Translations under genes and position numbers: made by a program
Sequence record: MK903282.1
Length of the DNA: 64,000 bases
DNA from: Escherichia phage Mansfield
Direction: 5' to 3' (one strand)
Shown: positions 504 to 56,746 of the stretch, piece by piece
How the letters are laid out: each line of letters begins with the position of its first letter
Position numbering within the stretch: the first letter of the stretch is position 1
Notes under the pieces: generated by a model
Database searches by the model: none
Told to the model about the DNA's origin: nothing
Seen by the model: the letters and a program-made list of their open reading frames with translations, nothing else

Positions 504-899
504 TCAATATTTTAATAAGAAAGCACCCAACCAACTTTCCTCAATCTCGCGCCCAGTAGCCACACGGTCGGTCTTTGCCATGGGTCTGGATTCGCCACAT
601 GGCAATCCGTCTTGTAGTTGTGTACTATTTCCAATTCTCACCATGACCTTTCCATCAGGGGCGATATAAGCGCGACAACCCATGATTTCGAGTCGTTGTA
701 GACACTGGCGAATCGTTTTCAGCCTTTCACCGGACCGGATAGAGCGCGGTCGCGACCGCTGACCGTTCTTATTCACTGTACGCTTAACGACAGGAATCTC
801 ATTGGTGCGTTGCGCTTTCGGTCGGTAGTAGGCTTCTTCTCCAGGAGTTGCGCCTGGCGTCAATTCGCGCTTGAGAGCCTTTTCAATATCGATGATCAT
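504..899 (-). CDS. hypothetical protein, basic (Arg/Lys-rich)
   Basis: 131-aa ORF, same strand and packing as neighbours; no recognisable catalytic motif. Confidence 0.45.
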   Translation of the reverse strand: MIIDIEKALKRELTPGATPGEEAYYRPKAQRTNEIPVVKRTVNKNGQRSRPRSIRSGERLKTIRQCLQRLEIMGCRAYIAPDGKVMVRIGNSTQLQDGLPCGESRPMAKTDRVATGREIEESWLGAFLLKY

Positions 900-902
900 G
901 AT

Positions 903-1001
903 TTATGCCGCTGCAGCGTAAACAATTGCATAAGCAATTCCAAATAGCGCGGCGATGCATACCGTGCCCCAAAGTGCAAAGCGTCGTGACTCTTTATCCA
1001 T
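903..1001 (-). CDS. small hydrophobic protein (32 aa), hypothetical
   Basis: Unlisted short ORF MDKESRRFALWGTVCIAALFGIAYAIVYAAAA filling the gap exactly between two minus-strand genes; single predicted TM helix. Confidence 0.3.
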   Translation of the reverse strand: MDKESRRFALWGTVCIAALFGIAYAIVYAAAA

Positions 1002-1289
1002 TTATTTATCCCCAACGTCCATGAAATTAAACACTAATTTTGCCATGTCATCTTGTGAAACGACACTGTAGTGTTTAGGCAAATTGCTTTCTGACAATAC
1101 CTTCTGGGCTTCTTCTGCCGTCTCAAACAAAGGAATGCACCAATTAACTGCGTCGCCAGAATCATTGCTATCAACTTGTTTCAAGAAAACCAAGCGGTTG
1201 TCTTCAGGATCAATTCCGCAAATCACGTATTTAGGCAATGCTTTTGCTTTTTGGGCCTTATCGATGTCTTCAAATTTCATTTCATTCAC
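1002..1289 (-). CDS. hypothetical protein
   Basis: 95-aa ORF with upstream GAGGTG-like RBS on the minus strand. Confidence 0.45.
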   Translation of the reverse strand: MNEMKFEDIDKAQKAKALPKYVICGIDPEDNRLVFLKQVDSNDSGDAVNWCIPLFETAEEAQKVLSESNLPKHYSVVSQDDMAKLVFNFMDVGDK

Positions 1290-1327
1290 CTCACTTGTTA
1301 ACGTATAATGAGTATAACTTAATAGAG

Positions 1328-1355
1328 CATAAAGTAAAGGCGCTTTTCAGCGCCT
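1328..1355 (-). terminator. putative intrinsic terminator downstream of the tail fiber gene
   Basis: Hairpin AGGCGC-ttttca-GCGCCT followed on the minus strand by UUACUUU. Confidence 0.35.
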
Positions 1356-1363
1356 TGAGTGAA

Positions 1364-3655
1364 TTATTTTGCTGCCTTTAGCGCGGCTATCTCTGCCTTC
1401 AAATCTTCAATTTGCTTATTGAGATACTGCACACAACCCATCAAGTCCATGACGATTGGGTTGTTGTCCACTGAAGGTCGGTCGCGCGTCTTCTCGCCTA
1501 TCTTATTGCCTTCCTCATCAAAAATATCCTCATAAGGCATTTCATGATGCTTGATGTATTGTGGTGCGATCACCTCCGCTTCTTCGGCAATAATCCCGAA
1601 TCTTACGCGCTCTTGCTCGTCATCCTTGTAGACAAAGTTCACTAGACGCTGTGAATTGATTCTGTCCATCGCTTCCTTTGCATCTGCATCAACGATGTCC
1701 CTTTTATATTCAAGACCGGACGTGCCTTGAAGCGCGATTGTTCCAGATGTTGAAGTCGGGAAGTCGAGAGTGATTTCACCAGTACGGTTGCCATCCTTGC
1801 GACGGAAGAATAAACGATAGTAGCGCGTACCGTTGGTGCCCAGCGCGGCTTCAAAAAACATCATACCGCCTACAACCGTGTCAGGGACTGTTCCGCCGCC
1901 GATGTAGTTTGGCTTCATCGAAAGTTGCGGGTACTGCCCATCAATGATTGAAACGCTGCCAGCAAATACTGCGTTTCCTTTGGAAGTTATCATCCCAGGG
2001 GCAGTAAAATCACCTCTTTCGTTAAAGTCATATACCGCTGTCAATCCGCTTGTTCGGTTATACACGTTTAAACGTGCATAATACGTCGCGCCAATCGCTG
2101 CGCGGATACGCCAACTCATTTGCGCTTCTTGAACGCCATTAACGTTGTAGCGTGAAATGATTTCGCCGCCGTCAGCAGTGGTGCCTGGGCCTGGCATAGC
2201 GGAGTCACCAGTGATCACACTCCAAGATGTATTCGCTGCAACAAACCCGCCAGATGCACGAATAACCCAGACGCCTACAAAGCAGTCAGGGCGCACCTTT
2301 GACGAGCGTCCGTAAGCGGCATTCGACCTGCTTGCGCTATAGTTGAATGTTCCGTATCTGGTTTCAGAAGAAGGCGTTGCAATATTTATTGCTTGGTTGT
2401 TTTGTGAAGAAAAAGAGAATGCACCATATCCATTGCCTGTTTGATATGTATACGCGGTGAAAGAGCCTGTTATGTCTGGGGCACCGTTTTCAAACACATC
2501 ACCTGCAGCAGATGATATTCCGCCGTCACCACGTCCGAACAATTCCTTAATTGAACCCGTCTGCACGCCGTTAAAATCAGGTACGCGAAATGTCGTCGTA
2601 CCGTTACCGGAAGAATAACGACCGCGTTTTTTCGAGTCTGCAAGCCAGTCAGCATCAGCAATAGGGGAAAGCATTTGTGCATACGCCCAAAGCTCAGGCC
2701 AGTCTGCACGGTTAAGTAATTGACCGTCCGCTACGACCTCGTACGGTTGGATATATGCACGACTATTTCGTAAGTGGAAGTCCCCAACGCCATAGTTCAT
2801 AACACCGTTCATGTTTGGCCCAACGGTGCCTGTATTTACTAAGTTTTCCACCCAACGCTTTGTCGCGGCATCATAATCGTTGACTGGGTCACCAGCAAGC
2901 GGCGTTGAACCTTGTGGGCGAATGTTTAACCATGCTTGAGCATTCTCTCCAGAGCCTGTGCCGCCCATGGAAGTCGGAACAACGCTCTGATCGGCCACAG
3001 GTCCGAATCCGAATGCATCTTTCATCCCCTGAATTGTGGTTTGGCCTGTTCCACCGTTCGATATTGGGATGATGCTCTGCTCACTGTAGATTGCTTTCCA
3101 AGGACTCCAACCAACAACTGGGTCATGAACTCGAATAAATTGAGAACCATTATTGTTGTATATGGTGTATATTTGTACGCATCCATCAGCGCCATTTGCA
3201 TAATTCTGCTTAACTTCCAGAACACCAGCAATTTGGGCTGGATAGTTTAGAGCAGGTGATGCATTGCTTGATCTGTCTTGATAATAATAACCAAACCAGG
3301 TGCCAGTCAGAGCATTGAGATTTATTCCAGATGGAATAGGCCCGAAATTTCTAACAGTATTGGTCAAAGATGCGGCAGTAGTACGAATTGAAAGTAAATC
3401 ACCAGCCGCCCATGCACGTGCTGCCGTACCTTCTTGTGCACGTTGAACGGTCAGGACGTTTCCAACCACGGCTGTTACTGTGACGATTTCGAATTGGAGG
3501 CCTGTTGCAGCGTCGACGATTGTCGCCACTACACGCTCGTTTGCGCCCAAAGTCGGAAAACCCGACCCTGAGCGAATTGTTATTGTGGTGTCTGAAGTCG
3601 TCGTTGGTTGAGCCAGCGCGACCTCAAAGTTGTTTTTGAATATTAGCCTTGGCAT
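1364..3655 (-). CDS. tail fiber / tail spike protein with C-terminal intramolecular chaperone (peptidase S74-like) domain
   Basis: 763 aa; Gly/Thr/Asn-rich body with repeated GGTG motifs; C-terminal region (LVNFVYKDDEQERVRFGIIAEEAEVIAPQY ... ending in a coiled coil) resembles the auto-cleaving chaperone domain of endosialidases and T5 L-shaped fiber. Confidence 0.7.
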   Translation of the reverse strand: MPRLIFKNNFEVALAQPTTTSDTTITIRSGSGFPTLGANERVVATIVDAATGLQFEIVTVTAVVGNVLTVQRAQEGTAARAWAAGDLLSIRTTAASLTNTVRNFGPIPSGINLNALTGTWFGYYYQDRSSNASPALNYPAQIAGVLEVKQNYANGADGCVQIYTIYNNNGSQFIRVHDPVVGWSPWKAIYSEQSIIPISNGGTGQTTIQGMKDAFGFGPVADQSVVPTSMGGTGSGENAQAWLNIRPQGSTPLAGDPVNDYDAATKRWVENLVNTGTVGPNMNGVMNYGVGDFHLRNSRAYIQPYEVVADGQLLNRADWPELWAYAQMLSPIADADWLADSKKRGRYSSGNGTTTFRVPDFNGVQTGSIKELFGRGDGGISSAAGDVFENGAPDITGSFTAYTYQTGNGYGAFSFSSQNNQAINIATPSSETRYGTFNYSASRSNAAYGRSSKVRPDCFVGVWVIRASGGFVAANTSWSVITGDSAMPGPGTTADGGEIISRYNVNGVQEAQMSWRIRAAIGATYYARLNVYNRTSGLTAVYDFNERGDFTAPGMITSKGNAVFAGSVSIIDGQYPQLSMKPNYIGGGTVPDTVVGGMMFFEAALGTNGTRYYRLFFRRKDGNRTGEITLDFPTSTSGTIALQGTSGLEYKRDIVDADAKEAMDRINSQRLVNFVYKDDEQERVRFGIIAEEAEVIAPQYIKHHEMPYEDIFDEEGNKIGEKTRDRPSVDNNPIVMDLMGCVQYLNKQIEDLKAEIAALKAAK

Positions 3656-3693
3656 TTTACGGTCCTCGTTTTGTCGACAACCGTATTATAACC

Positions 3694-4035
3694 TTAATTT
3701 CTTTTGAGAGGAATATGACGGTTGCTGTCATTATTTGGTTTAATAATGAGCATAAAAACGATTAGAAAGATGATGGCTGATATACTTAATTCAATCAGCG
3801 CGGCTTGAGATATGGATTGATCTTCATGATACTGCTTTTGCATTTCCGCTCTCTTTTGAGCGCAAACTTCAGGCGATATATAATCTCCTTTTGAGTTGCC
3901 ATAATAAATCTCGCCATTCTCAGAAATAAGCCTGCCGCAAATATCCGTATCGGCCTTTGCGCTTGACATCATAATAACGGTGCCGATGATAGCAGCAATT
4001 GTCCAAATTAGCAGTTGTGATAAAGTGTTGTTCAT
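3694..4035 (-). CDS. small membrane protein (N- and C-terminal hydrophobic segments)
   Basis: 113 aa; N-terminal signal/TM segment and C-terminal TM helix; directly downstream of the tail fiber gene. Confidence 0.45.
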   Translation of the reverse strand: MNNTLSQLLIWTIAAIIGTVIMMSSAKADTDICGRLISENGEIYYGNSKGDYISPEVCAQKRAEMQKQYHEDQSISQAALIELSISAIIFLIVFMLIIKPNNDSNRHIPLKRN

Positions 4036-4050
4036 AATAACCTCTTTAAA

Positions 4051-4078
4051 TTACCCTTCCCATGTCGGGAAGGGTGAA
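4051..4078 (-). terminator. stem-loop, possible terminator/attenuator
   Basis: Perfect inverted repeat CCCTTCCC-atgtc-GGGAAGGG; flanked by AT-rich sequence, U-tract weak. Confidence 0.25.
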
Positions 4079-4232
4079 TATTATTTTACGCGAAAGAATA
4101 AGCGCGTGCCACACAGCGAGTCCCAACGGCCCTCACCATCCCATATCGACCCAACACCAGCGGTGATTGGGCCAGCAGAATTGGCGGCATTGGCCCAGGC
4201 GAGTCGTTTCAGTTTCCAACTGCACCAACGAT

Positions 4233-4466
4233 TCACAGTTCACCTCCAGACTGCAAAACAAGTCCCGCATAGAGGATTGCTAGAGCTAAAGGCGCACCAC
4301 TTCCAGCCTCTCTATTCTCTTTGATTTGAAGAGTATCCTTAAGAAATTGCAACTGAACGTTGAATTCATTTTCAATTCCAAGCACTACAGATAATTCTTT
4401 TACAGAATCTGCATATGCCTTGTCTAGAACTTCTTTTGGTAATGTTAAAGTCAATTCACTTGCCAT
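4233..4466 (-). CDS. hypothetical protein
   Basis: ORF track 4233..4496; internal ATG at 4466 preceded by GGAG gives smaller overlap with the upstream gene. Confidence 0.35.
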   Translation of the reverse strand: MASELTLTLPKEVLDKAYADSVKELSVVLGIENEFNVQLQFLKDTLQIKENREAGSGAPLALAILYAGLVLQSGGEL

Positions 4467-4677
4467 TCTCTTTCCACTCCACAAATGTGCTGCCACTTGT
4501 TTCTCTATTTAGCAGGTATCTGCCGCGCATTCCATGAAGGCTGAATTCAACCGTCGATGGATTAGATTTTGAAAGCCACATGGCCTGACCGTCGAACGGT
4601 CCGCCAACGCATGTGTATTTAGCCTTTGGCTCACTCCTTTTGGGTCGCTTTGCCCGCTCTTTGATTGATAGTCTCAT
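4456..4677 (-). CDS. hypothetical protein
   Basis: 73-aa ORF, basic N-terminus; part of minus-strand gene string. Confidence 0.35.
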   Translation of the reverse strand: MRLSIKERAKRPKRSEPKAKYTCVGGPFDGQAMWLSKSNPSTVEFSLHGMRGRYLLNRETSGSTFVEWKENGK

Positions 4678-4892
4678 CAGTCTTCACCTTGAGATTCCAG
4701 ACAAGTAAGAACAAGCCACGTCATCGGAAGAATCAAAACCAGAGAAATAAGGGACCAGATGGACCAGCACAAGATGACAGACTTGAATGTGTGAACGTCG
4801 CCAAACACAGCAGTGAAACAAAATCCCATCACAAAAGCAAGCGTGGTGGAGTGGTTATCAATGGCTTTGATGGCGCGGTCGATGAGTTTCAT
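4677..4892 (-). CDS. small membrane protein (two predicted TM helices)
   Basis: 71 aa with two long hydrophobic segments (LAFVMGFCFTAVFG, ILCWSIWSLISLVLILPMTWLVL). Confidence 0.45.
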   Translation of the reverse strand: MKLIDRAIKAIDNHSTTLAFVMGFCFTAVFGDVHTFKSVILCWSIWSLISLVLILPMTWLVLTCLESQGED

Positions 4893-4981
4893 ATTACCTC
4901 CGGTTTTGAGTTAATATGATTATAACGCAGAGTTTCAGAAAGGCAAACTTTTTGTGAATTTATGCCGTCCATGGCAAATGA

Positions 4982-5212
4982 TTAGTGAGAAGACACGACT
5001 AATGTGCCGCTTCCTTTCGCGAAAATCTCAACACCTGGCGGGATTGTGACCGTGCCAACAACTGCGATGCCGATCAACTTGTCGTCTGCTTTTTCTTCGA
5101 AACAGATCTCTGCGGCACCGCCGCGAACTTGAATAAGTGCGCCTGATACGTTTTCAACAACAGAAAGAACGGAAGTGTAAGATGGAGTGAGTTGAATATT
5201 TACTAGGGCCAT
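4982..5212 (-). CDS. hypothetical protein
   Basis: 76-aa ORF; first gene of the minus-strand left-arm operon. Confidence 0.4.
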   Translation of the reverse strand: MALVNIQLTPSYTSVLSVVENVSGALIQVRGGAAEICFEEKADDKLIGIAVVGTVTIPPGVEIFAKGSGTLVVSSH

Positions 5213-5225
5213 GATTTACTCCTGA

Positions 5226-5253
5226 TAAAAAAATGGCCAGAAAGAATCTGGCC
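5226..5253 (-). terminator. hairpin plus U7 tract (terminator-like or 5' UTR attenuator) in the divergent intergenic region
   Basis: GGCCAG-aaagaat-CTGGCC followed on minus strand by UUUUUUU; lies between a candidate minus-strand promoter (TTGCTT-N17-TAAAAT, about 5296-5324) and the first minus-strand gene. Confidence 0.3.
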
Positions 5254-5330
5254 GAAAAGATCACCCTTTATCCACTACTAAGCTGGAATCACAATTTTAC
5301 TTGATATAGCTGTCTCAAGCAAACTATAAT

Positions 5331-6791
5331 ATGAATAAAATATTAACACATAATTGGAAAGTCATGTACCAGTTGAATCCTGCTTTAAGAGAAGTTTGGA
5401 AGACGAAAGCGCGATACAAAGTAATATACGGCGGTCGTGCATCTTCCAAATCGCATGATGCCGCTGGTTTTGCTATTTATTTGGCGGCAAACTTTAAATT
5501 AAAATTCCTTTGCGTTCGACAATTCCAGAACAAGATTTCTGAATCAGTATATACGCTATTAAAAGATAAGATAGAGATTTCTGATTTTAAAGACGAGTTC
5601 AACTTATTAAAGAACTCTATTGAACACAAAAGAACAAAATCTGAATTCTTATTTTACGGTATCGCACGCAACGTTGACGAAATCAAATCAACAGAAGGCG
5701 TTGATGTTCTTTGGCTTGAAGAAGCGCATGCACTGACTGAAGAACAATGGGACATTATTGAGCCGACCATTCGTAAGGAAGGGTCAGAAATATGGATCAT
5801 ATTTAACCCTGATGAAGAGGCCGATTTCGTCTACCAGAACTTTGTCATGCGACCGCCGAAGAATGCCATCGTTAAGAAGATCAACTGGCAAGACAACCCA
5901 TTTTTGTCACAAACAATGCTGGATGTTATTGCTGGCATGTATGAGCGCGACCCGAAAAAGGCAGAACACGTTTATGGCGGAGTACCGAAGACAGGCGGCG
6001 ACAAGTCGGTCATCAACCGTGCATTCGTCAAGGCCGCGCTAAACCTCCACAAACACCCTACGCTGGGATGGAGCTTGTCAGGGTCTAACCGTATAGGCTT
6101 TGACGTGGCGGACGACGGCGACGACTTAAACGCCACAGCATTTGTCACGGGCAACGTATTGCGCGGCATCAAGACATGGGAAGGTCTGGAAGATGAATTG
6201 CTTAAGTCCGCAAGCGGAGTTTGGAAAGACGCATTGACATTCGGCGCATCAATTACCTATGACGCAATCGGTGTTGGTGCATTTGCTGGTTCAAAATTTG
6301 ATGAGCTTAATGAGTATGCAATCCATGAAAATCCAACATTCCCAAGAATCGAATTTAATGCGTTCAACGCGCAAGGTGCTGTTGATGATCCTGATGATGT
6401 TTTCCTTGAGTTACCACACGTTGAAATACTCAATAAAGACCATTTCGCAAACATAAAAGCGCAAAAATGGACTGAGATTGCCGAACGATTCAGGAAGACA
6501 TATGAATATGCGACAGGGCAAGCCGTATATCCGACCGATGAGTTGATTTCCATCGACACAGACGGCATTCCAGAACTTGGGATTCCTGCTTGGTCTGCGG
6601 AAGAGATTGAGACGTTTCTTTTTGAGATGTCAGCGCCGCGCAAAGATACGTCTGTACTTGGCAAGTTCAAAGTTGAATCGAAAAAAGATATGGCAAAGCG
6701 TGGAGTCAAATCGCCTAACAAAGCGGACGCCGCAATCATGGCATTGATGAAACCAATTGTTGCAGCATCCGGCTTCTTCTCTAACCTTTAA
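5331..6791 (+). CDS. terminase large subunit
   Basis: 486 aa; N-terminal ATPase with Walker A-like YGGRASSKS and LWLEEAH; C-terminal nuclease-like acidic residues; position immediately upstream of portal. True start may be the downstream ATG at 5364. Confidence 0.85.
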   Translation: MNKILTHNWKVMYQLNPALREVWKTKARYKVIYGGRASSKSHDAAGFAIYLAANFKLKFLCVRQFQNKISESVYTLLKDKIEISDFKDEFNLLKNSIEHKRTKSEFLFYGIARNVDEIKSTEGVDVLWLEEAHALTEEQWDIIEPTIRKEGSEIWIIFNPDEEADFVYQNFVMRPPKNAIVKKINWQDNPFLSQTMLDVIAGMYERDPKKAEHVYGGVPKTGGDKSVINRAFVKAALNLHKHPTLGWSLSGSNRIGFDVADDGDDLNATAFVTGNVLRGIKTWEGLEDELLKSASGVWKDALTFGASITYDAIGVGAFAGSKFDELNEYAIHENPTFPRIEFNAFNAQGAVDDPDDVFLELPHVEILNKDHFANIKAQKWTEIAERFRKTYEYATGQAVYPTDELISIDTDGIPELGIPAWSAEEIETFLFEMSAPRKDTSVLGKFKVESKKDMAKRGVKSPNKADAAIMALMKPIVAASGFFSNL

Positions 6792-6794
6792 CAA

Positions 6795-7034
6795 CTAAAG
6801 CATTCCGTGCTGAAGGTCGAGTTTTCTTGCGGCAAATGACCTGGCACGGAATCGCTTACCCGCTCTTACTGCCTGTCGAATTTTCTTTTGCAAACACTTA
6901 CGGTCAAAATCGTTGCGGTCGACGGCTTCGAGTAAATCACGACGCAACGCACCCAGTGTCGACTTTTCGGAGACTTCAACGCCCAGCGCGGCTGCAACGT
7001 CTTTCAAAACATCGAGTTCGGTTAAAGTTCTCAT
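6795..7034 (-). CDS. hypothetical protein
   Basis: 79-aa ORF on the opposite strand between terminase and portal. Confidence 0.4.
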   Translation of the reverse strand: MRTLTELDVLKDVAAALGVEVSEKSTLGALRRDLLEAVDRNDFDRKCLQKKIRQAVRAGKRFRARSFAARKLDLQHGML

Positions 7035-7447
7035 TTGATAATCCCCTTGATGTCTGATTCTGCCATAAAGATTGGAGTGCCGCCGCCAGGAACAATCGAG
7101 CGCGTTACTTTGTCAAAAATATCGTTCTCTTCAACTTGAATACGATAAAATTTATTTTTGGATGAAGATGGGCACAATCCCATAAATTTGCCGATGCCGC
7201 GAACGCATTCATCTTCAAAGTATACTGTTTCACCTTGAATGGATTCGATGTTGTCTACTGGATAGACCTTGCGACCCAACAACCACTCATCTAAAGTCGC
7301 CTGCAAGACGTTTCGCGCATCTAAAATCCACGGGTCAATAGTAGCACCTTCGTATCGCGCAGCAGTAGCCTTTGCCAGTTCTTCATATTCGCATACGTTA
7401 ACGACTTCGCCGTTGTGCAAGACGACAAATACAATTGTTGTGCTCAT
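7031..7447 (-). CDS. hypothetical protein
   Basis: 138-aa ORF with AAAGGAG RBS; opposite strand between terminase and portal. Confidence 0.45.
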   Translation of the reverse strand: MSTTIVFVVLHNGEVVNVCEYEELAKATAARYEGATIDPWILDARNVLQATLDEWLLGRKVYPVDNIESIQGETVYFEDECVRGIGKFMGLCPSSSKNKFYRIQVEENDIFDKVTRSIVPGGGTPIFMAESDIKGIIK

Positions 7448-7542
7448 TTCAATCTCCTTTCGTTTGGTTAACTAAAATATAACTCAAAATGATACAAAAG
7501 CAAAATATTTTATGAACTATTTATGATCACCATACATATCAT

Positions 7543-7571
7543 TTGCTTACAAACACATGAATATTTATAAT
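7543..7571 (+). promoter_or_regulatory. sigma70-like promoter upstream of portal gene
   Basis: TTGCTT-N17-TATAAT read directly from sequence. Confidence 0.4.
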
Positions 7572-7609
7572 ATAGATTGATTCCCTTTCACTGTCAGGTG
7601 GCGTTAACA

Positions 7610-9985
7610 ATGAAAATTCTTGGCATAAAACTCTGGGAGAAGACGCAACCAGAAGCCGAACCAGCGGAGATGCCGCCAGGCGACCCATTGGCACCGTTTG
7701 AACGCCTTGAAAGGCGCGGCAGCGGTCAACGCTGGGAAAAGACTGAAAGCAATCGACCGACCTTTAAAACGGTTGATGACTTCCCTTTATATGAACCTGA
7801 TATTAATGGCGACGGTGTTGCTATCATAAAAGGTCGTTCAGTCGATTCCGCAACAGTATCCAAAAAGGTTATGGATAATGCCTTGAAGAACATCAGTTCA
7901 GAAGGGCAGGTCAACCCATACACAGTCCCTATTCAACTTCAAAACTGGTATTTGTCACAGTCATTCATCGGCTATCAAGCTTGTGCCATCATCGCACAGC
8001 ACTGGCTGGTGAACAAGGCGTGTTCCATGGTAGGCCGCGATGCGGTCCGTAAAGGCTGGGAAGTCAAATCCAGTTCTGAGTCAGAATTATCAGTGCAGGC
8101 CAGCGAACGCCTAAAGCAAATTGATAAAGAATTTAATATCAAAGAGCACTTAGTTGAAGCCGAACGATTCAAAAATATTTTTGGTATCCGCGTCATCATA
8201 TTTGATGTGCGTAGTGATGACCCAGAATACTACAGCAAACCTTTTAACATTGATGGTGTGACAAAGGGGTCTTATAAGGGAATCATTCAGGTTGACCCTT
8301 ATTGGATGATGCCATTTTTGACGTCTGAAAACACCGCCGACCCTGCATCACAGCACTTCTATGATCCAGAATACTGGGTGATCAGTGGACAACGTTATCA
8401 TCGAAGCCACCTGATCATTTTGCGCAACGATGAGCCAGCTGATATTCTCAAGCCGACTTATATTTACGGCGGCATTCCTTTGACTCAGCAGATTTATGAA
8501 CGCATCTATGCCGCTGAGCGTACCGCTAACGAAGCGCCATTGCTGGCGATGTCCAAGCGTACAACCACGCTGCGGACCGACGTTGACAAGGCGATTGCCA
8601 ATGAGAGGTCTTTTGCTGAACGTCTGATGATGTGGATTAAGTACCGCGACAACTATGCAGTCAAAGTGCTTGGTCAAAAAGAAGAGATGGACCAGTTCGA
8701 CATCAACTTGTCAGACTTCGATAGCATCATCATGAACCAGTACCAGCTGGTGGCTGCAATCGCAAAAGTTCCGTCAACCAAACTTCTTGGGACTTCGCCA
8801 AAAGGCTTTAACGCCACTGGTGAATTTGAGATGGTCAGCTATCACGAAGAGTTGGAAACTTGCCAGCAGCATGACCTGACAAAAATTCTCGACCGCCATT
8901 ACAAAATCCTTCTCAAATCAGAAGGGGTGGAAGTCGATGTTAAGGTCGCATGGGAACCAGTTGGCTCACTTACTGCTACTCAACTTGCAGAAATCAACGA
9001 CAAGCGAGCTAACACTGGCAAAACTCTTATTGATGCTGGCGTCATTTCTCCTGATGAAGAGCGCGACCGCATCAAAGACGACAAAAACAGCGGCTACAAC
9101 CGTCTGCCGGAAGACGCAGCAGAAGAAACCCCAGGGATGTCTCCAGAGAATATGGCATTGCTTGGCAAGTCTGCTGGTGAAGTCCTGCAAGGCAAGGCCG
9201 ATATTGAACAGGCGAAAGCTGATGTCGTTAAGATGGGCGGCCAGTTCTATAGCGAAACAGGTATTATGCCAGAAGGTGCCGCGCGTGGTGAGTTGGCGGA
9301 AAACCCTGACAAAGCGCCTGTCGAAATCAACATGGACGATACCGATGATGAATCAAGCCATCAGGTTGATGTCCTAACGCAGTTGAAAGAAGGTCTGGAG
9401 GGTATTGCTGATTATTACCTGAAAGAAGGTCAGGATGTGGATTTTGACCCTCAAAAAGATTCACGGTCGGTACAACCGTCTACCCTTCCAAGCGTCAAAG
9501 GTAATGTCGTTAACTTACGACACAACGTTGGAAAGATGGATGCAGCATCGTTACCTAAGATGAAGTTGCACGGGCTGATTCTTGGGATTGAGAATCCTCG
9601 CAACAGCATCCGTAGAGGGAACAGCCTTGACGGTGAATGGGCAGTCAAGATGCCGCATCACTACGGATTCATCAAGGGCACTAAGGGCGCGGACGGCGAT
9701 GAAGTCGACTGCTTTGTTGGTCCAAATATGAAGTCGCCGAAGGTCTTTATCGTTAACCAGAATGATAATTACTCTGGCGAGTTTGATGAACACAAGTGCA
9801 TGCTTGGATTCGATTCAGCAGAAGAAGCGAAAGAAGCTTATCAAGCATCATTTGGTAACGGGTGGAACGGATTTGACTCAATCCACGAATTGGATGTAAA
9901 CTCGTTCAAGGAGTGGTTGAAGGGTGATTGCTCTCAAGCATACGGAGCACTCAATAATCCTACTAATTCACCGAAGCAAGGTTGA
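7610..9985 (+). CDS. portal protein with C-terminal inorganic pyrophosphatase-like domain
   Basis: ORF track 7577 is a TTG start; ATG at 7610 has AGGTGG RBS 8 nt upstream. About 790 aa, immediately after terminase; acidic linker then C-terminal domain with HYGFIKGT...GADGDEVDCFVG matching family I pyrophosphatase signature. Confidence 0.7.
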   Translation: MKILGIKLWEKTQPEAEPAEMPPGDPLAPFERLERRGSGQRWEKTESNRPTFKTVDDFPLYEPDINGDGVAIIKGRSVDSATVSKKVMDNALKNISSEGQVNPYTVPIQLQNWYLSQSFIGYQACAIIAQHWLVNKACSMVGRDAVRKGWEVKSSSESELSVQASERLKQIDKEFNIKEHLVEAERFKNIFGIRVIIFDVRSDDPEYYSKPFNIDGVTKGSYKGIIQVDPYWMMPFLTSENTADPASQHFYDPEYWVISGQRYHRSHLIILRNDEPADILKPTYIYGGIPLTQQIYERIYAAERTANEAPLLAMSKRTTTLRTDVDKAIANERSFAERLMMWIKYRDNYAVKVLGQKEEMDQFDINLSDFDSIIMNQYQLVAAIAKVPSTKLLGTSPKGFNATGEFEMVSYHEELETCQQHDLTKILDRHYKILLKSEGVEVDVKVAWEPVGSLTATQLAEINDKRANTGKTLIDAGVISPDEERDRIKDDKNSGYNRLPEDAAEETPGMSPENMALLGKSAGEVLQGKADIEQAKADVVKMGGQFYSETGIMPEGAARGELAENPDKAPVEINMDDTDDESSHQVDVLTQLKEGLEGIADYYLKEGQDVDFDPQKDSRSVQPSTLPSVKGNVVNLRHNVGKMDAASLPKMKLHGLILGIENPRNSIRRGNSLDGEWAVKMPHHYGFIKGTKGADGDEVDCFVGPNMKSPKVFIVNQNDNYSGEFDEHKCMLGFDSAEEAKEAYQASFGNGWNGFDSIHELDVNSFKEWLKGDCSQAYGALNNPTNSPKQG

Positions 9986-9986
9986 T

Positions 9987-10838
9987 ATGGCTTTTAAAGC
10001 TTCGAAAAAACGTGAACGCCGCTCACCCGATAGAATCGGGCGCGGCAGTCCGATAATCCCGTCAAACGCTATTGCGATGGCCTACCGTCGTGAGATGAAA
10101 GGTCTTTGCTATGCGATGATTGATGACTATCAAGCAGGCATTTCAGAATGGCTTGATAAGAAGCAGGTGCAGAAGTTTTTTGCGCAAGACTCTGCTGATT
10201 CTACATTCCAGACTCTCATGAAACGGCTGCAGCTGAAATGGGCAAAGGCGTTTGCACGTGTTGGGTCGAAGATTGCCGCTGATTTTATCAAATCGGTCGA
10301 AAAGGGTGCCACTTCTGCTACATTCGCAAGCCTTAAGTCCGCAGGCATAGAAGCGCCAAAGGCCACATATAACAAATTCGTTGAGAACACTCTTAGAACA
10401 AGCGAGACGTTTAACACGACTCTAGTGACTAAGGTCGGCGAGGATATTCACAACAGAGTGTACGAAGCAGTCATGCTTTCGCTGACTTCGCCCGACCCAG
10501 CCCAGCAAGGAACGTCAGGCATTCAGGCGGCGTTGCGAAACGTAAAACACTTCTCTGCAAAGAGGGTCGACTTGATCGCTAAAGACCAGACAAGCAAATT
10601 GTATTGCGTTCTAAGCGATGAAAGGATGCGCCAGAATGGAGTCGAAGAATTTGAGTGGGCGCACTCAGGAGCAGGAAAGGAGCCGCGAATCTCTCATGAA
10701 CACGTCGACGGAATGAGATTCAAACTTGACGACAAGCGACTATGGGAAGTTGACGGCGAATTGAAGTTCAAAAAGGGTGACATCGGTCCTCCTGGATGGG
10801 CAATACACTGCAAGTGCAGAAAAATACCAATCATTTGA
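9987..10838 (+). CDS. head morphogenesis protein (Mu gpF / SPP1 gp7-like minor head protein)
   Basis: Position directly after portal; C-terminal conserved HEHVDG...GWAIHCKCRK region typical of MuF-like proteins; ATG at 9987 abuts portal stop. Confidence 0.65.
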   Translation: MAFKASKKRERRSPDRIGRGSPIIPSNAIAMAYRREMKGLCYAMIDDYQAGISEWLDKKQVQKFFAQDSADSTFQTLMKRLQLKWAKAFARVGSKIAADFIKSVEKGATSATFASLKSAGIEAPKATYNKFVENTLRTSETFNTTLVTKVGEDIHNRVYEAVMLSLTSPDPAQQGTSGIQAALRNVKHFSAKRVDLIAKDQTSKLYCVLSDERMRQNGVEEFEWAHSGAGKEPRISHEHVDGMRFKLDDKRLWEVDGELKFKKGDIGPPGWAIHCKCRKIPII

Positions 10839-26639: not shown

Positions 26640-26696
26640 AATATTGCTTATAGACTCCTTATAGATTATAATTTGTTGATCAGATATAAGGAGTCT

Positions 26697-47461: not shown

Positions 47462-47908
47462 TTAACGGTAATTCACTAATTGTTGATCACCAGAGAAGGT
47501 GCAATGATAAACGAATTGTGCGTTGTAAAGCAATTGAAAACTTTTCTTTGGTTCATTATTAGCACTCATCGATGTGAATACTTCTGCACCGGAACGGTTT
47601 TCACCAATCAGATTGATAAAGCCGCCAGTTGAACGAGGTTGAACGAAAGTGAAACGTTGCATCCACGGAGTACGGTTGGCACCTTTCCCTGTGAATCCCT
47701 GAATCTGAATATTCAGACCTTCTTGCTCGTTAACACCGATGTAAGTGGTAATCGTTGCACCAGTTGTCGCTGCGGTCTTACCGTCCATCGCTTCACAATC
47801 GTAAACAGCGATTGAATCGGAAGTACGGACGGCAGCTTCAGTCGCTTCCATATACATGGTGCCGAGAATAGCAGTTGCGGCAAGCGCGATTCCAGTGATT
47901 CGTTTCAT
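47462..47908 (-). CDS. secreted protein with signal peptide
   Basis: 148 aa; MKRITGIALAATAILGTMYMEATEAA signal-peptide-like N-terminus. Confidence 0.45.
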   Translation of the reverse strand: MKRITGIALAATAILGTMYMEATEAAVRTSDSIAVYDCEAMDGKTAATTGATITTYIGVNEQEGLNIQIQGFTGKGANRTPWMQRFTFVQPRSTGGFINLIGENRSGAEVFTSMSANNEPKKSFQLLYNAQFVYHCTFSGDQQLVNYR

Positions 47909-51612: not shown

Positions 51613-51715
51613 TTCAGGCGACCTTTGTTAGTGCGGAAATATTTTCTGATAGTATAATTGCAGATATAGTATAAAGCAAAGTAAATCGAAATTGTGAACT
51701 AAATGGTAAATATTG

Positions 51716-52855: not shown

Positions 52856-52913
52856 TTTGCTTTTATTTTTCTAGCAACTATAATCATTTTATGAACTGAA
52901 GCAGAGGTGATTT

Positions 52914-54028: not shown

Positions 54029-54080
54029 TAGTTCACCAGTTATATTGCTTTAAACTGAGTTTTACTATATTAATATACAA

Positions 54081-54164: not shown

Positions 54165-55835
54165 ATGTCAATTGAACATGACAATCTTCCAGAGGATACA
54201 GGTGATGAATTTGGTGCAATCTTTGACGAAATTCAAGACGCTGGTGTTTCAGAAGAAATGCAAGCGGCAGAGCAGCAAGGCACCAGAGCTAAAATCAGCC
54301 TACAGCACAAGGCTGTTGAGAAAGATGCAGAGCGCATGGAATGCTACGGTGAAGAAGACTTGGTTGAAAGGGCACGTTTGCTCGCCTCACTTCAGGTAAT
54401 CAAGTTCCCTCACTACAAACCGACGAAAGATGATTTTGTTCTTCAGGCGGACCGGACGAGTGACATGAACCGTTATGCGGTTTTCGACGCGTTGTTTGAT
54501 AAGGGAAGTGGCGTTGTTCCATTCCCTCACAAAGATACTTTTCGTGGACGCTTAGTCGACCATCGCGGCGAAACTTTCACCGACCGGACGTTGGAAGTTA
54601 CAGAGATAGTTGCCGCTGTCGATGCAGCAGGACTGTCCAACCCAAACTCACGTCAGGTCGCTCAATCCTATAAGGAATGGGCCATGCGTTATCAGCGCGA
54701 CGACCTGATGGACTTCTTCTACAAGAAGCTGCCTGAATGGGACGGTACTGCGCGCATTGAGAAATACCTTATCGAGCTATTCCGACCGTTCGATACAGAG
54801 TTAAACCGACAAATCGGTGTGTATTTTTGGCTATCGCTCTATAACCGCCTGACCAACCCTGGCTGTCAAGCGCCAATCTCCATCGCGCTCATCGGCGGCC
54901 AGAACGCAGGGAAGAGTTATTTTAGCAAGCTGCTTTGCGAAGCTATTATGAACGACCGCCACGCAACACCGATTCCGTTGAACTTGGCCGCGCAGAACTT
55001 CAACCCGTTCTTGCGAGCTATTACGGGTCGCTCAATTATCGCGAACGTTGGCGAGATGACAGGCTTTAAAAAGGCTGACATCGAAAACATGAAAGCATTC
55101 CTGACTAAGACGGAAGATGACCTGGACTTCAAATTTGAGGACACGCAGGTTAAACCACGCCAGTGGATTGCTATCATGGACGGCAACGAATACGCAGGCA
55201 TGCAGCGTGACGACACGGGCAACCGTCGTGTATACCCTATATTTGTTGGCCAACTCGCTGACAAGGACGGGCAACCGAACTGGTCTAAAGACTTCCAAGC
55301 TGACCTTTCCACTTTGAAAGAAGACGTTTGGCAGCTGATGGCTGAGTGCGCTGCTTGGATGGAGAAGCACGGCGAAGCAGGTTACAATGCCTTTGTTGGT
55401 GAAACGTCTCGCATGCTTACTGAGTTCAGTAAGAACGAAATGGAACGCGCTCGCGGCGTTATCCGTGATGAGATGGTCGACAACGACCTTGTTGAAGTCG
55501 TCATCACCGCGCCTTATGACCGACATCACAGCGGACGCTGGCACATCACCAGTGGTGCAATCGCTATGGGATTCAGAGCTAAGTGCGGCAAGTCGCCTTT
55601 CTCACGTACCCTTGCGCCGCACATGTCGAAGCTTGGATTTGAGCCTGCGACCTATCGCAACCAGCGCGGTTACTTTACGCCGCTGATTAAGAATGAAGCA
55701 GGGGAATACATTTCTGACCTGATGACTATTTTGGCGTATCTTATCCGCGACGAATCTGACCCTGAAGATATTGAATTCTTGAAGAAGGTTATTGAGCGCA
55801 AACGTTCTTTAGGAAGAGATAAGGATGAATTCTGA
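54165..55835 (+). CDS. VirE-like P-loop NTPase (primase-associated SF3 helicase-like protein)
   Basis: 556 aa; Walker A IALIGGQNAGKSYF, Walker B-like QWIAIMDGNE; architecture typical of phage/plasmid VirE/primase C-terminal domain proteins. Confidence 0.6.
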   Translation: MSIEHDNLPEDTGDEFGAIFDEIQDAGVSEEMQAAEQQGTRAKISLQHKAVEKDAERMECYGEEDLVERARLLASLQVIKFPHYKPTKDDFVLQADRTSDMNRYAVFDALFDKGSGVVPFPHKDTFRGRLVDHRGETFTDRTLEVTEIVAAVDAAGLSNPNSRQVAQSYKEWAMRYQRDDLMDFFYKKLPEWDGTARIEKYLIELFRPFDTELNRQIGVYFWLSLYNRLTNPGCQAPISIALIGGQNAGKSYFSKLLCEAIMNDRHATPIPLNLAAQNFNPFLRAITGRSIIANVGEMTGFKKADIENMKAFLTKTEDDLDFKFEDTQVKPRQWIAIMDGNEYAGMQRDDTGNRRVYPIFVGQLADKDGQPNWSKDFQADLSTLKEDVWQLMAECAAWMEKHGEAGYNAFVGETSRMLTEFSKNEMERARGVIRDEMVDNDLVEVVITAPYDRHHSGRWHITSGAIAMGFRAKCGKSPFSRTLAPHMSKLGFEPATYRNQRGYFTPLIKNEAGEYISDLMTILAYLIRDESDPEDIEFLKKVIERKRSLGRDKDEF

Positions 55836-56482
55836 TGAATAAAGCAATCAACATCGCTAAATTCTTTCAACATCTCGGTGAACTGAACAAAGAGAGTGAC
55901 GTTCACGGAGAAGAAATGAACCGGATGATTTCAACCGTGTTGCGTGGTTTTGGTTACGATAAAGACTCCATCACCTGTAAACGCACGAAGCTTGTCGATG
56001 AGACATACCTTTACTACGTTGAATTGCGCGTAGGGAAAGATTTGATGATCATCGACCCTAAATTGGAAGGGGCGCACTGTTTTGGCGCTCACCCTCGTGC
56101 AAGTGAATTCAAGGGGCGCGGTCGTAACCGACTCCAGAAGCTTGATGATGCAGGCGACTTGAACATCTCGATGTTCCTCAAAGAGTTCCTTGCTTTGCCG
56201 AAGGTTGCGTCTTCAACGGGTCGTGATGACCTTTGCAAGATTGGATTCAGAACTAAAGATTTGCGCAATGCGCTACGCAAGAAGGGATTTGTGCCTTCTT
56301 ATGATAACGTCGCCGCGCTGATGGCTTCCATGGAGGAAGCTGAAGCAATGGACAAGGTGCGCGGCTATTTCCTGAATACAGGCTGCACAATGTATGAGTG
56401 GCACACCAAAGGATTGACGGTCGCCGACTTCATCTATTCATTAGAGCAGAAGTATGTACGCAATATGCAGGCCACAGGATAA
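55835..56482 (+). CDS. hypothetical protein
   Basis: 215-aa ORF, ATGA overlap with upstream gene. Confidence 0.45.
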   Translation: MNKAINIAKFFQHLGELNKESDVHGEEMNRMISTVLRGFGYDKDSITCKRTKLVDETYLYYVELRVGKDLMIIDPKLEGAHCFGAHPRASEFKGRGRNRLQKLDDAGDLNISMFLKEFLALPKVASSTGRDDLCKIGFRTKDLRNALRKKGFVPSYDNVAALMASMEEAEAMDKVRGYFLNTGCTMYEWHTKGLTVADFIYSLEQKYVRNMQATG

Positions 56483-56521
56483 TTATCATCAAAATATTTG
56501 CTTTTCTGAAGAGGTGATATT

Positions 56522-56746
56522 ATGATTAATTTAGACAGGATTGAGTTAGCACTTAGTACCTTAATCAAATATTACCAGTTTGCTTTTAAGGCCAGTTTGT
56601 TCGGCTTGTTCAATCCTCATCAAGCAGCAAAGGCGCGAAGCAATGCAAACCGCCTGCGTTGTACTGGTATAGTCATCCACGACCGGATATTGACAGAGGG
56701 TAGATCCAGCCATGAATACACAAGGGAGAATAACAAATCAGCGTAG
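56522..56746 (+). CDS. hypothetical protein
   Basis: 74-aa ORF with strong GAGGTG RBS; coding status of the 56700-56920 region is ambiguous. Confidence 0.35.
   Translation: MINLDRIELALSTLIKYYQFAFKASLFGLFNPHQAAKARSNANRLRCTGIVIHDRILTEGRSSHEYTRENNKSA

Follow-up and report, generated by a model that had tools for sequence, protein, structure and literature searches.

The window analyzed here is a stretch of 64,000 nucleotides from Escherichia phage Mansfield (MK903282.1). Its positions 5300-10000 are matched at 92-97% identity by 28 records of Wifcevirus, a genus of Escherichia and Shigella myoviruses. These records include WFH, WFC, ECML-117, vB_Eco4M-7 and Bas98-101, and the source phage is a member of the genus. 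Two short minus-strand genes, arranged as an operon, lie between the plus-strand terminase (TerL) and portal genes. The junction contains the following features.

5331/5364..6791, plus strand: TerL gene (PF04466, E = 3e-37), convergent with the operon
6788..6857, minus strand: terminator-like end of the operon, made up of a hairpin (6857-6798) and a U-tract, from folding
6795..7034, minus strand: 79-aa gene, second gene of the operon, from the ORF list
7031..7447, minus strand: 138-aa gene, first gene of the operon, from the ORF list
7448..7609, between the divergent genes: control region of 162 nt with back-to-back promoter-like sites for operon and portal
7476..7503, minus strand: operon promoter-like site, TTGCTT (7503-7498), N16, TATATT (7481-7476), from a pattern search
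7543..7571, plus strand: portal promoter-like site, TTGCTT-N17-TATAAT, from a pattern search
7610..9985, plus strand: portal gene (PF06381, E = 4e-88), divergent from the operon

The initial annotation described two minus-strand reading frames of 79 and 138 aa between terminase and portal, each with its own RBS. The frames are exactly as in the ORF list, and Shine-Dalgarno-like sequences can be read upstream of each ATG. The RBS of the 138-aa gene is AAAGGAGA, located 6 nt before the start codon, and that of the 79-aa gene is AAGGGG, located 8-9 nt before it. The two frames overlap in an ATGA sequence, and TerL and the 79-aa gene converge, with only 3 nt between their stop codons. The neighboring portal protein carries an InPase domain at its C-terminus. 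An Rfam scan of positions 6500-7800 gave no match, and a tRNA scan found none.

Selection and sequence variation were assessed in an alignment of 10 Wifcevirus genomes. When read in the minus-strand frames, 24 of the 29 variable sites in the 79-aa ORF and 51 of the 62 in the 138-aa ORF fall at third codon positions. The corresponding dN/dS values are 0.053 and 0.073, compared with 0.013-0.014 for TerL and portal. Because substitutions are biased toward third positions and dN/dS is low, both ORFs are real genes under purifying selection. The GC content of the operon (0.43-0.48) matches the surrounding sequence and the rest of the genome, and thus gives no sign of foreign origin.

A promoter of the form TTTGCT-N16-TATATT had been proposed at about 7480-7510, within a divergent promoter region common to the operon and the portal gene. 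This site is present with an offset of about 1-4 nt, and the control region does contain back-to-back promoter-like sites. Sequences of this type are enriched in the window, where TTGCT-N16-19-TATAWT matches five times against 0.29 expected by chance, and the relaxed pattern TTGCTT-N15-18-TANNNT matches 13 times against 2.7 expected. No enrichment of TTGACA-type sites is seen in the window. Strong early promoters of phage T5, PN25 among them, have TTGCTT and TATAAT as their two boxes. Since the portal gene carries the same type of promoter, early versus late expression of the operon cannot be deduced from promoter class. The Wifcevirus cycle is reported to be very short (PMC11990801), which may blur temporal classes. 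No temporal expression data for the orthologous genes of Pbunavirus 14-1 were found in the accessible literature, and one data set (bioRxiv 10.1101/248849) covers host data only.

The operon promoter-like site is identical in seven of seven Wifcevirus genomes. In an alignment with Pantoea phage Kyle and four metagenomic relatives (L091-L094), the -35 and -10 boxes of both sites are kept, as is the spacing between the two sites. In 14-1, the position orthologous to the portal site is an annotated sigma-70 promoter. The 39-nt AT-rich spacer between the two sites contains two phased TTTnTGA motifs. Altogether, the architecture of the control region is kept across six lineages whose flanking proteins are only 25-55% identical. 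The divergent promoter pair is thus old and looks functional, given that its boxes, spacing and TTTnTGA motifs are retained despite this divergence.

Within Wifcevirus, only three of the 162 intergenic columns vary in the 10-genome alignment, whereas the genes on either side vary at 13-15% of positions. One reading of this constraint is that the 138-aa protein, with or without the 79-aa protein, binds the intergenic region and sets the balance or timing of the leftward unit relative to the portal/morphogenesis operon. The control region is far more conserved than neighboring coding DNA, its phased repeats are kept in five lineages, and the 138-aa gene always abuts it across genera. However, AT-rich phased repeats could instead be UP elements common to two strong promoters, and some relatives (Pbunavirus and locus L017) keep the 138-aa gene and the control region without the 79-aa protein. 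Together with properties of the 138-aa protein discussed below, these observations make local regulation of transcription improbable.

The other end of the operon is occupied by a hairpin (6857-6798) with a stem of about 20 bp, including a bulge, that covers the final 20 codons of the 79-aa gene. Downstream of this hairpin on the minus strand comes UUUAGUUGUU, which includes the stop codon of the 79-aa gene. On the plus strand, the same hairpin lies 7 nt past the TerL stop codon. Its folding energy is -27 to -28 kcal/mol, with a fold z-score of -2.5 on the plus strand and only -1.7 on the minus strand. Among the 10 aligned genomes, the stems hardly vary and the variable sites lie in the loop, a depletion (about four expected, one observed) that is suggestive only. 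A consensus terminator scan does not flag this hairpin because of its long loop. The combination of hairpin and U-tract is terminator-like. A weaker second minus-strand hairpin, at 6744-6727 within TerL, was flagged by the consensus scan.

Both genes are found by tblastn in all 28 Wifcevirus records with 95-100% amino-acid identity, and neither protein matches anything outside these records at E < 0.01 in this search. More distant homologues emerge from direct comparisons. Kyle gp028 resembles the 138-aa protein (E = 8e-10) and Kyle gp026 resembles the 79-aa protein (E = 6e-11). In this phage, a gene for a lipoprotein trypsin-like protease lies between gp028 and gp026, and two more genes are present on the TerL side. 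Homologues in the same order occupy the same junction in Kyle, L008 and L091-L094.

The TerL-portal junction was surveyed in 80 loci that were retrieved with a TerL query and mapped by tblastn and ORF calling. Among relatives of 65-73 kb whose TerL is at least 57% identical, the gap measures 717, 785, 822, 2092, 2334, 2420, 2588, 3714, 4685 or about 6600 bp and is occupied by minus-strand genes, mostly of unknown function. In two loci whose TerL is at most 51% identical (L028 and L035), the same strand carries a small ORF, TerL and portal without interruption, and the gap block is missing. These two loci bear out the premise of the initial annotation, at least for this TerL family, that terminase and portal genes are normally adjacent.

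The 138-aa family extends further than its partner. A jackhmmer search recovers it in Kyle, L008, L017 and three high-GC loci (L011, L012 and L022) that belong to Pbunavirus, and it always adjoins portal. About 300 Pbunavirus records carry the family. In Pbunavirus 14-1 (NC_011703), the family member gp17 is the first of 14 minus-strand genes (gp04-gp17) that are flanked by TerL (gp03) and portal (gp18). The Mansfield protein itself matches PHROGs family phrog_5124 with an E-value of 2.9e-4, seven of 11 aligned relatives match the same family (best 1.4e-88), and tblastn with a Pbunavirus family protein reaches a Wifcevirus at 5e-5. By these sequence matches, the 138-aa protein is a member of the phrog_5124/14-1 gp17 family. 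The gene for this family is the first minus-strand gene, divergent from portal, in all loci compared. The jackhmmer survey found no homologue of the 79-aa protein in Pbunavirus or L017.

An exhaustive HMMER search with the 138-aa profile against 1.84 billion representatives added only four further proteins, all from related phage contigs. These contigs read, from portal to TerL, as a 138-like gene, in some cases the protease, a 79-like gene, one to four small genes and a DUF2786/DUF7168 gene. Among 41 proteins from such blocks, Pfam recognizes only DUF2786/DUF7168, DUF6011 and Trypsin_2.

The relatives carry a longer block in the same order at the same junction, and the Wifcevirus operon is therefore a reduced, two-gene form of an ancestral leftward block. 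By the same synteny, the operon is an old, ancestral resident of the lineage and neither a recent insertion nor cargo of a single strain. Recent insertion of cargo is not supported by this comparison, as homologues are present in Kyle, metagenomic relatives and about 300 Pbunavirus records. The related idea that the junction is an accessory site holds in part. An opposite-strand block of variable size (0.7-6.6 kb) does reside there, but these two genes are fixed in 28 of 28 Wifcevirus records and have genome-typical GC content. Conservation across genera, and retention after all other block genes were lost, are unlike the behavior of dispensable cargo and would fit a core role, for example in morphogenesis or packaging assistance.

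Searches for function returned little. Scans of both proteins with Pfam and NCBIfam found nothing significant, PADLOC models gave no match at E <= 1, and PHROGs matches were to families of unknown function only. Word-indexed protein searches with both proteins returned only close relatives, and PDB sequence searches with both family profiles gave nothing below E = 0.39. Remote homology searches and structure prediction, which had been recommended as a check, were run on both proteins and assigned neither to a family with known activity.

The 138-aa protein is acidic, with a pI of 4.7 and a net charge of -7. Its AF2 model (pLDDT 77, from an alignment of eight sequences) has a predicted beta-beta-alpha-beta unit at the N-terminus (residues 4-42) and a beta-barrel at the C-terminus (residues 59-137), and the linker that joins them is poorly defined. 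The modeled barrel resembles SH3, Sm, Tudor and KOW folds, although the fold matches are generic (5-19% identity) and no family-specific motifs of these folds are found in the protein. A BFVD search with the model returned only Wifcevirus and Kyle proteins, and no paralogue of the barrel is present in the window. The predicted likeness to KOW and Sm folds would suit a protein that acts locally on transcription. However, its negative charge and the lack of a recognizable DNA-binding motif argue against such a role.

The 79-aa protein is basic (pI 10.3, 9.0 kDa), with a net charge of about +10 over its C-terminal 34 residues. The AF2 model (pLDDT 82) predicts a helix at residues 6-17, a loop at 18-26 and a long helix at 27-77. 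A pattern of L..L.DVAAALGV.V......L...L is conserved in the family. By eye, the N-terminus is like the helix-extension-helix of HeH, SAP and Rho_N domains, with Foldseek matches that are non-significant only, and the Pfam models for these three domains do not match the protein at E <= 1. Neither PDB sequence nor fold searches with the 79-aa protein yield a significant match, and the window encodes no paralogue of it.

Mass spectrometry has been reported for preparations of vB_Eco4M-7 and ECML-117, in which 33 and 28 proteins were identified (PMC7048862). These lists contain many structural proteins, including portal, as well as some non-structural ones, and they include neither operon product (gp34 and gp35 of vB_Eco4M-7; PI34_gp32 and gp33 of ECML-117, the latter tags inferred from gene order). 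Both proteins are small, so their absence is weak negative evidence against a location in the virion. In a separate study, vB_Eco4M-7 gp35, which is the 138-aa protein, was among 20 proteins chosen for HiBiT tagging; genes directly behind expected transcription start sites were among the categories used for this choice (PMC11074155). Synthetic vB_Eco4M-7 with HiBiT-tagged gp35 gave an unchanged plaque yield (336 versus 332; PMC11074155).

Absence from phage preparations would also be expected of an effector pair that neutralizes bacterial immunity or host machinery, for example RNA polymerase or Rho. The operon has its own sigma-70-type promoter-like site, and the small, acidic 138-aa protein has a predicted fold of a protein-binding type. 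In addition, the orthologous block of 14-1 includes gp12 (DUF6011), a reported binder of the RNA polymerase alpha subunit and inhibitor of host transcription, according to the papers that cite the original work (Van den Bossche 2014, cited in PMC10914365 and PMC6748951). However, neither operon protein is similar to any characterized inhibitor, and the Pbunavirus anti-defence genes named in one study have gene numbers outside the gp04-gp17 block (PMC12390725). Patchy distribution and fast evolution are the usual pattern for anti-defence genes, whereas these two are fixed in the genus, strongly constrained and common to phage genera that infect Escherichia, Pantoea and Pseudomonas. Wifcevirus phages are also still inhibited on many strains (PMC11990801). 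The anti-defence or host-takeover role that had been put forward for these genes gains no supporting match in Pfam, NCBIfam or PADLOC, and the fold matches are uninformative. We consider an effector pair doubtful, if somewhat less so than a local regulator.

A different role is suggested by the neighbors of the operon. The two proteins could be core morphogenesis or packaging helpers that stay outside the virion, such as a portal/procapsid chaperone or a DNA-recognition partner of TerL, and would be kept near TerL and portal through joint work. The 79-aa protein might even be the missing small terminase subunit (TerS) of Wifcevirus, a genus whose genomes have no annotated TerS. Retention of the pair between TerL and portal in every Wifcevirus, adjacency of the 138-aa gene to portal across genera and low dN/dS all agree with such a function, as does the likely nucleic-acid-binding character of the modeled 79-aa protein.

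Comparison with Pbunavirus weakens this case. The experimentally defined TerS of that genus is gp76 (PDB 7UXE), which is encoded about 58 kb from TerL (PMC9611059). We confirmed that 14-1 gp76 corresponds to 7UXE; its gene follows that of the primase. Known TerS protomers are 15-21 kDa and consist of an N-terminal helix-turn-helix, a helical oligomerization core and a C-terminal barrel (PMC9611059). The 138-aa protein is excluded as a TerS, as its Pbunavirus homologue gp17 is distinct from gp76. Its own predicted architecture, an alpha/beta domain with an SH3-like barrel, also differs from that of TerS. The 79-aa protein was judged unlikely to be a TerS, since at 9.0 kDa it is too small and its model of two helices lacks the helix-turn-helix, the helical-hairpin core and the barrel. 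Profiles of both families gave no PDB sequence match to E217/14-1 gp76 (7UXE).

Other candidates for a Wifcevirus TerS were sought in the window. An ORF at 55835..56482 (215 aa) is syntenic with Pbunavirus gp76 and has a 30% identical counterpart in Kyle, and no similarity between this ORF and gp76 is detectable. A phmmer search of 23 concatenated small ORFs of the window against the PDB also gave no match. The dissimilarity of the syntenic ORF favors the packaging interpretation. However, if the 79-aa protein were essential to TerL, it should have been kept alongside a TerL that is 60% identical, and no homologue of it was detected in Pbunavirus or L017; the protein has no PDB sequence or fold match to lend support, and both genes are opposite in strand to all morphogenesis genes. 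On balance, packaging or morphogenesis helpers are unlikely, yet they are a more credible alternative than an effector pair.

The explanation that we favor, with slightly better than even confidence, is that positions 6788-7503 form a compact, autonomous leftward unit that is the minimal form of a variable non-virion block and whose products act in the cell. The unit would read, in order, as a host sigma-70-type promoter, an RBS, the 138-aa gene, the ATGA-coupled 79-aa gene and a terminator composed of a hairpin and a U-tract. A terminator in this position would end transcription before it runs antisense into TerL. In the Pbunavirus/Wifcevirus/Kylevirus lineage, a block of this kind stands between TerL and portal, with the 138-aa gene as its conserved portal-proximal anchor. 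The operon is an ancestral accessory operon and is probably non-structural.

The observed features of the locus are two real genes under purifying selection, their conservation and synteny, and the conserved promoter and terminator motifs. From these we infer the timing, binding partners and cellular role of the operon products. Most likely, host RNA polymerase would transcribe the unit from the start of infection, and translational coupling would yield roughly equal amounts of both products, which would act inside the cell and outside the virion. Neither protein has functional homology, so the mechanism is read from shape and charge alone. The 79-aa protein probably binds nucleic acid, which it would do through its arginine/lysine-rich helix. 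The SH3/Sm-like barrel of the 138-aa protein would bind a partner protein, which may come from the host or the phage or may be the 79-aa product itself. Jointly, the two might adjust nucleic-acid transactions of the host or the phage.

A more ambitious proposal is that the two proteins constitute a conserved two-component transcription switch specific to this myovirus lineage. An acidic Sm/SH3-like protein and a basic protein with an HeH-like N-terminus and an arginine-rich helix would act on a host termination or elongation factor, or on the 162-nt control region. Such a switch would bring the leftward accessory genes into step with the rightward morphogenesis operon, and it would help to make the Wifcevirus cycle unusually fast. 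This is a long shot, and we rate it below even simple local regulation.

The block is of wider interest in that the Pbunavirus/Wifcevirus/Kylevirus group includes phages in therapeutic use against P. aeruginosa, and at least one reported effector of host transcription (14-1 gp12) is encoded within it. Wifcevirus has retained these two genes while all others were lost, which makes them the best candidates for the indispensable function of the block. They are also amenable to testing, because they are small, tagging is tolerated and the phage now grows on engineered E. coli K-12. Public records already list the products of both genes as hypothetical proteins, and the new part of this analysis is therefore the synteny picture only.

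Several known systems share features with this operon. At the protein level, the 138-aa barrel can be compared with SH3, Sm, Tudor and KOW barrels by generic matches only, with no significant Pfam model. Like the TerS of E217/14-1 (PDB 7UXE), the 79-aa protein is encoded by a small gene beside TerL and has a basic character that suggests nucleic-acid binding. Unlike this TerS, it has no sequence or fold similarity, is of the wrong size and is encoded on the opposite strand, and the TerS of the sister genus is found elsewhere.

At the level of gene organization, a comparable general model is the moron, which Juhala, Hendrix and colleagues reportedly described as an autonomous promoter-gene-terminator unit inserted between late genes of lambdoid phages. 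Classical morons are patchy in distribution, often have deviant composition and are expressed from prophages. The operon may likewise be self-contained between two conserved morphogenesis genes, with a conserved promoter-like site of its own and a hairpin plus U-tract that is terminator-like. Unlike morons, it resides in a virulent phage, is fixed in its genus (28 of 28), is common to several genera and is normal in GC content; variation from one genus to another is limited to the wider block.

The closest counterparts are the blocks of related phages. In Kyle (gp024-gp028), L091, L093 and L094, the 138-like gene is first and the 79-like gene is downstream of the same divergent control region, as in Wifcevirus. 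These blocks differ by a protease gene between the two, by one to three extra small genes and by a DUF2786/DUF7168 gene beside TerL, all of which are missing in Wifcevirus. The gp04-gp17 block of Pbunavirus 14-1 also places minus-strand genes between plus-strand TerL and portal genes and begins with a homologue of the 138-aa protein. Its 14 genes include gp12, a methyltransferase gene and a gene for a DUF2786/DUF7168 protein, whereas the Wifcevirus operon consists of only two.

Promoter-like sites in the window carry a -35 box of the form TTGCTT. The pattern TTGCTT-N15-18-TANNNT occurs at 13 sites, compared with 2.7 in shuffled sequences, and canonical TTGACA promoter sites showed no enrichment in a window-wide pattern count. 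Eight examples from across the window are listed here.

Promoter-like sites with a TTGCTT -35 box
7476-7503, minus strand
7543-7571, plus strand
26644-26672, plus strand
47504-47533, minus strand
51651-51679, minus strand
52857-52884, plus strand
54045-54071, plus strand
56498-56526, plus strand

The -35 boxes of the two-gene operon and of the portal gene are separated by a 39-nt spacer (7504-7542). Two TTTnTGA motifs, 11 bp apart, lie within it, and ATACATAT adjoins the portal -35 box. These spacer elements are also present in Pantoea phage Kyle and in the metagenomic relatives L091-L094, though the proteins have strongly diverged; UP elements and an operator are both possible readings of them.

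TerL is a single plus-strand gene with minus-strand genes on either side (504-7447). This layout could equally well be described as a leftward gene region in which TerL is embedded. Promoter-like sites overlap back to back at the TerL 5' end.

Promoter-like sites at the TerL 5' end
within 5294-5330, plus strand, TTGATA-N18-TATAAT
within 5294-5330, minus strand, TTGCTT-N17-TAAAAT

Inside the TerL 3' end, a second strong hairpin on the minus strand (6720-6776; -31.7 kcal/mol, z -2.9, with 0 of 200 shuffles as stable) is followed by CUUUGUU. It may be a back-up terminator of leftward transcription or an antisense element. Just upstream of TerL, a 76-aa ORF (4982-5212, minus strand) is the counterpart of gp32 of vB_Eco4M-7 and PI34_gp30 of ECML-117. 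Both proteins were found by mass spectrometry of phage preparations, gp32 with a high score (PMC7048862), and the ORF product may therefore belong to the virion or be made in large amounts.

Metagenomic Wifcevirus-like contigs encode variants of the operon proteins. The C-terminal third of the 138-aa homologue P0008 is out of frame, and the 79-aa homologue P0010 differs in its last 8 residues and has a 4-residue extension. Errors of assembly, or natural frameshift variation at the hairpin region, probably account for these oddities.

The portal protein (gene 7610-9985) carries a C-terminal InPase domain (PF18823, residues 649-771, E 2e-46), a fusion shared by the L091 and L094 portals. The related PHROG matches are very large proteins of the polyvalent or DarB-like type.

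Zinc-finger proteins of the DUF6011 family, to which the RNAP alpha binder 14-1 gp12 belongs, are found repeatedly in the block between TerL and portal in several lineages, at four Pbunavirus loci (L011, L012, L022 and L088) and at L021 and L024; none occurs in the Wifcevirus block. Elsewhere in the Kyle genome, gp086 is annotated as a DnaJ-type zinc-binding protein.

No Wifcevirus has an annotated small terminase. A 215-aa ORF (55835-56482, plus strand), whose Kyle homologue is gp093 at 30% identity, is a TerS candidate by synteny only, because BLASTP and hhalign detected no similarity to 14-1 gp76. It follows the primase gene, as does gp76, the experimentally defined TerS of Pbunavirus (PDB 7UXE).
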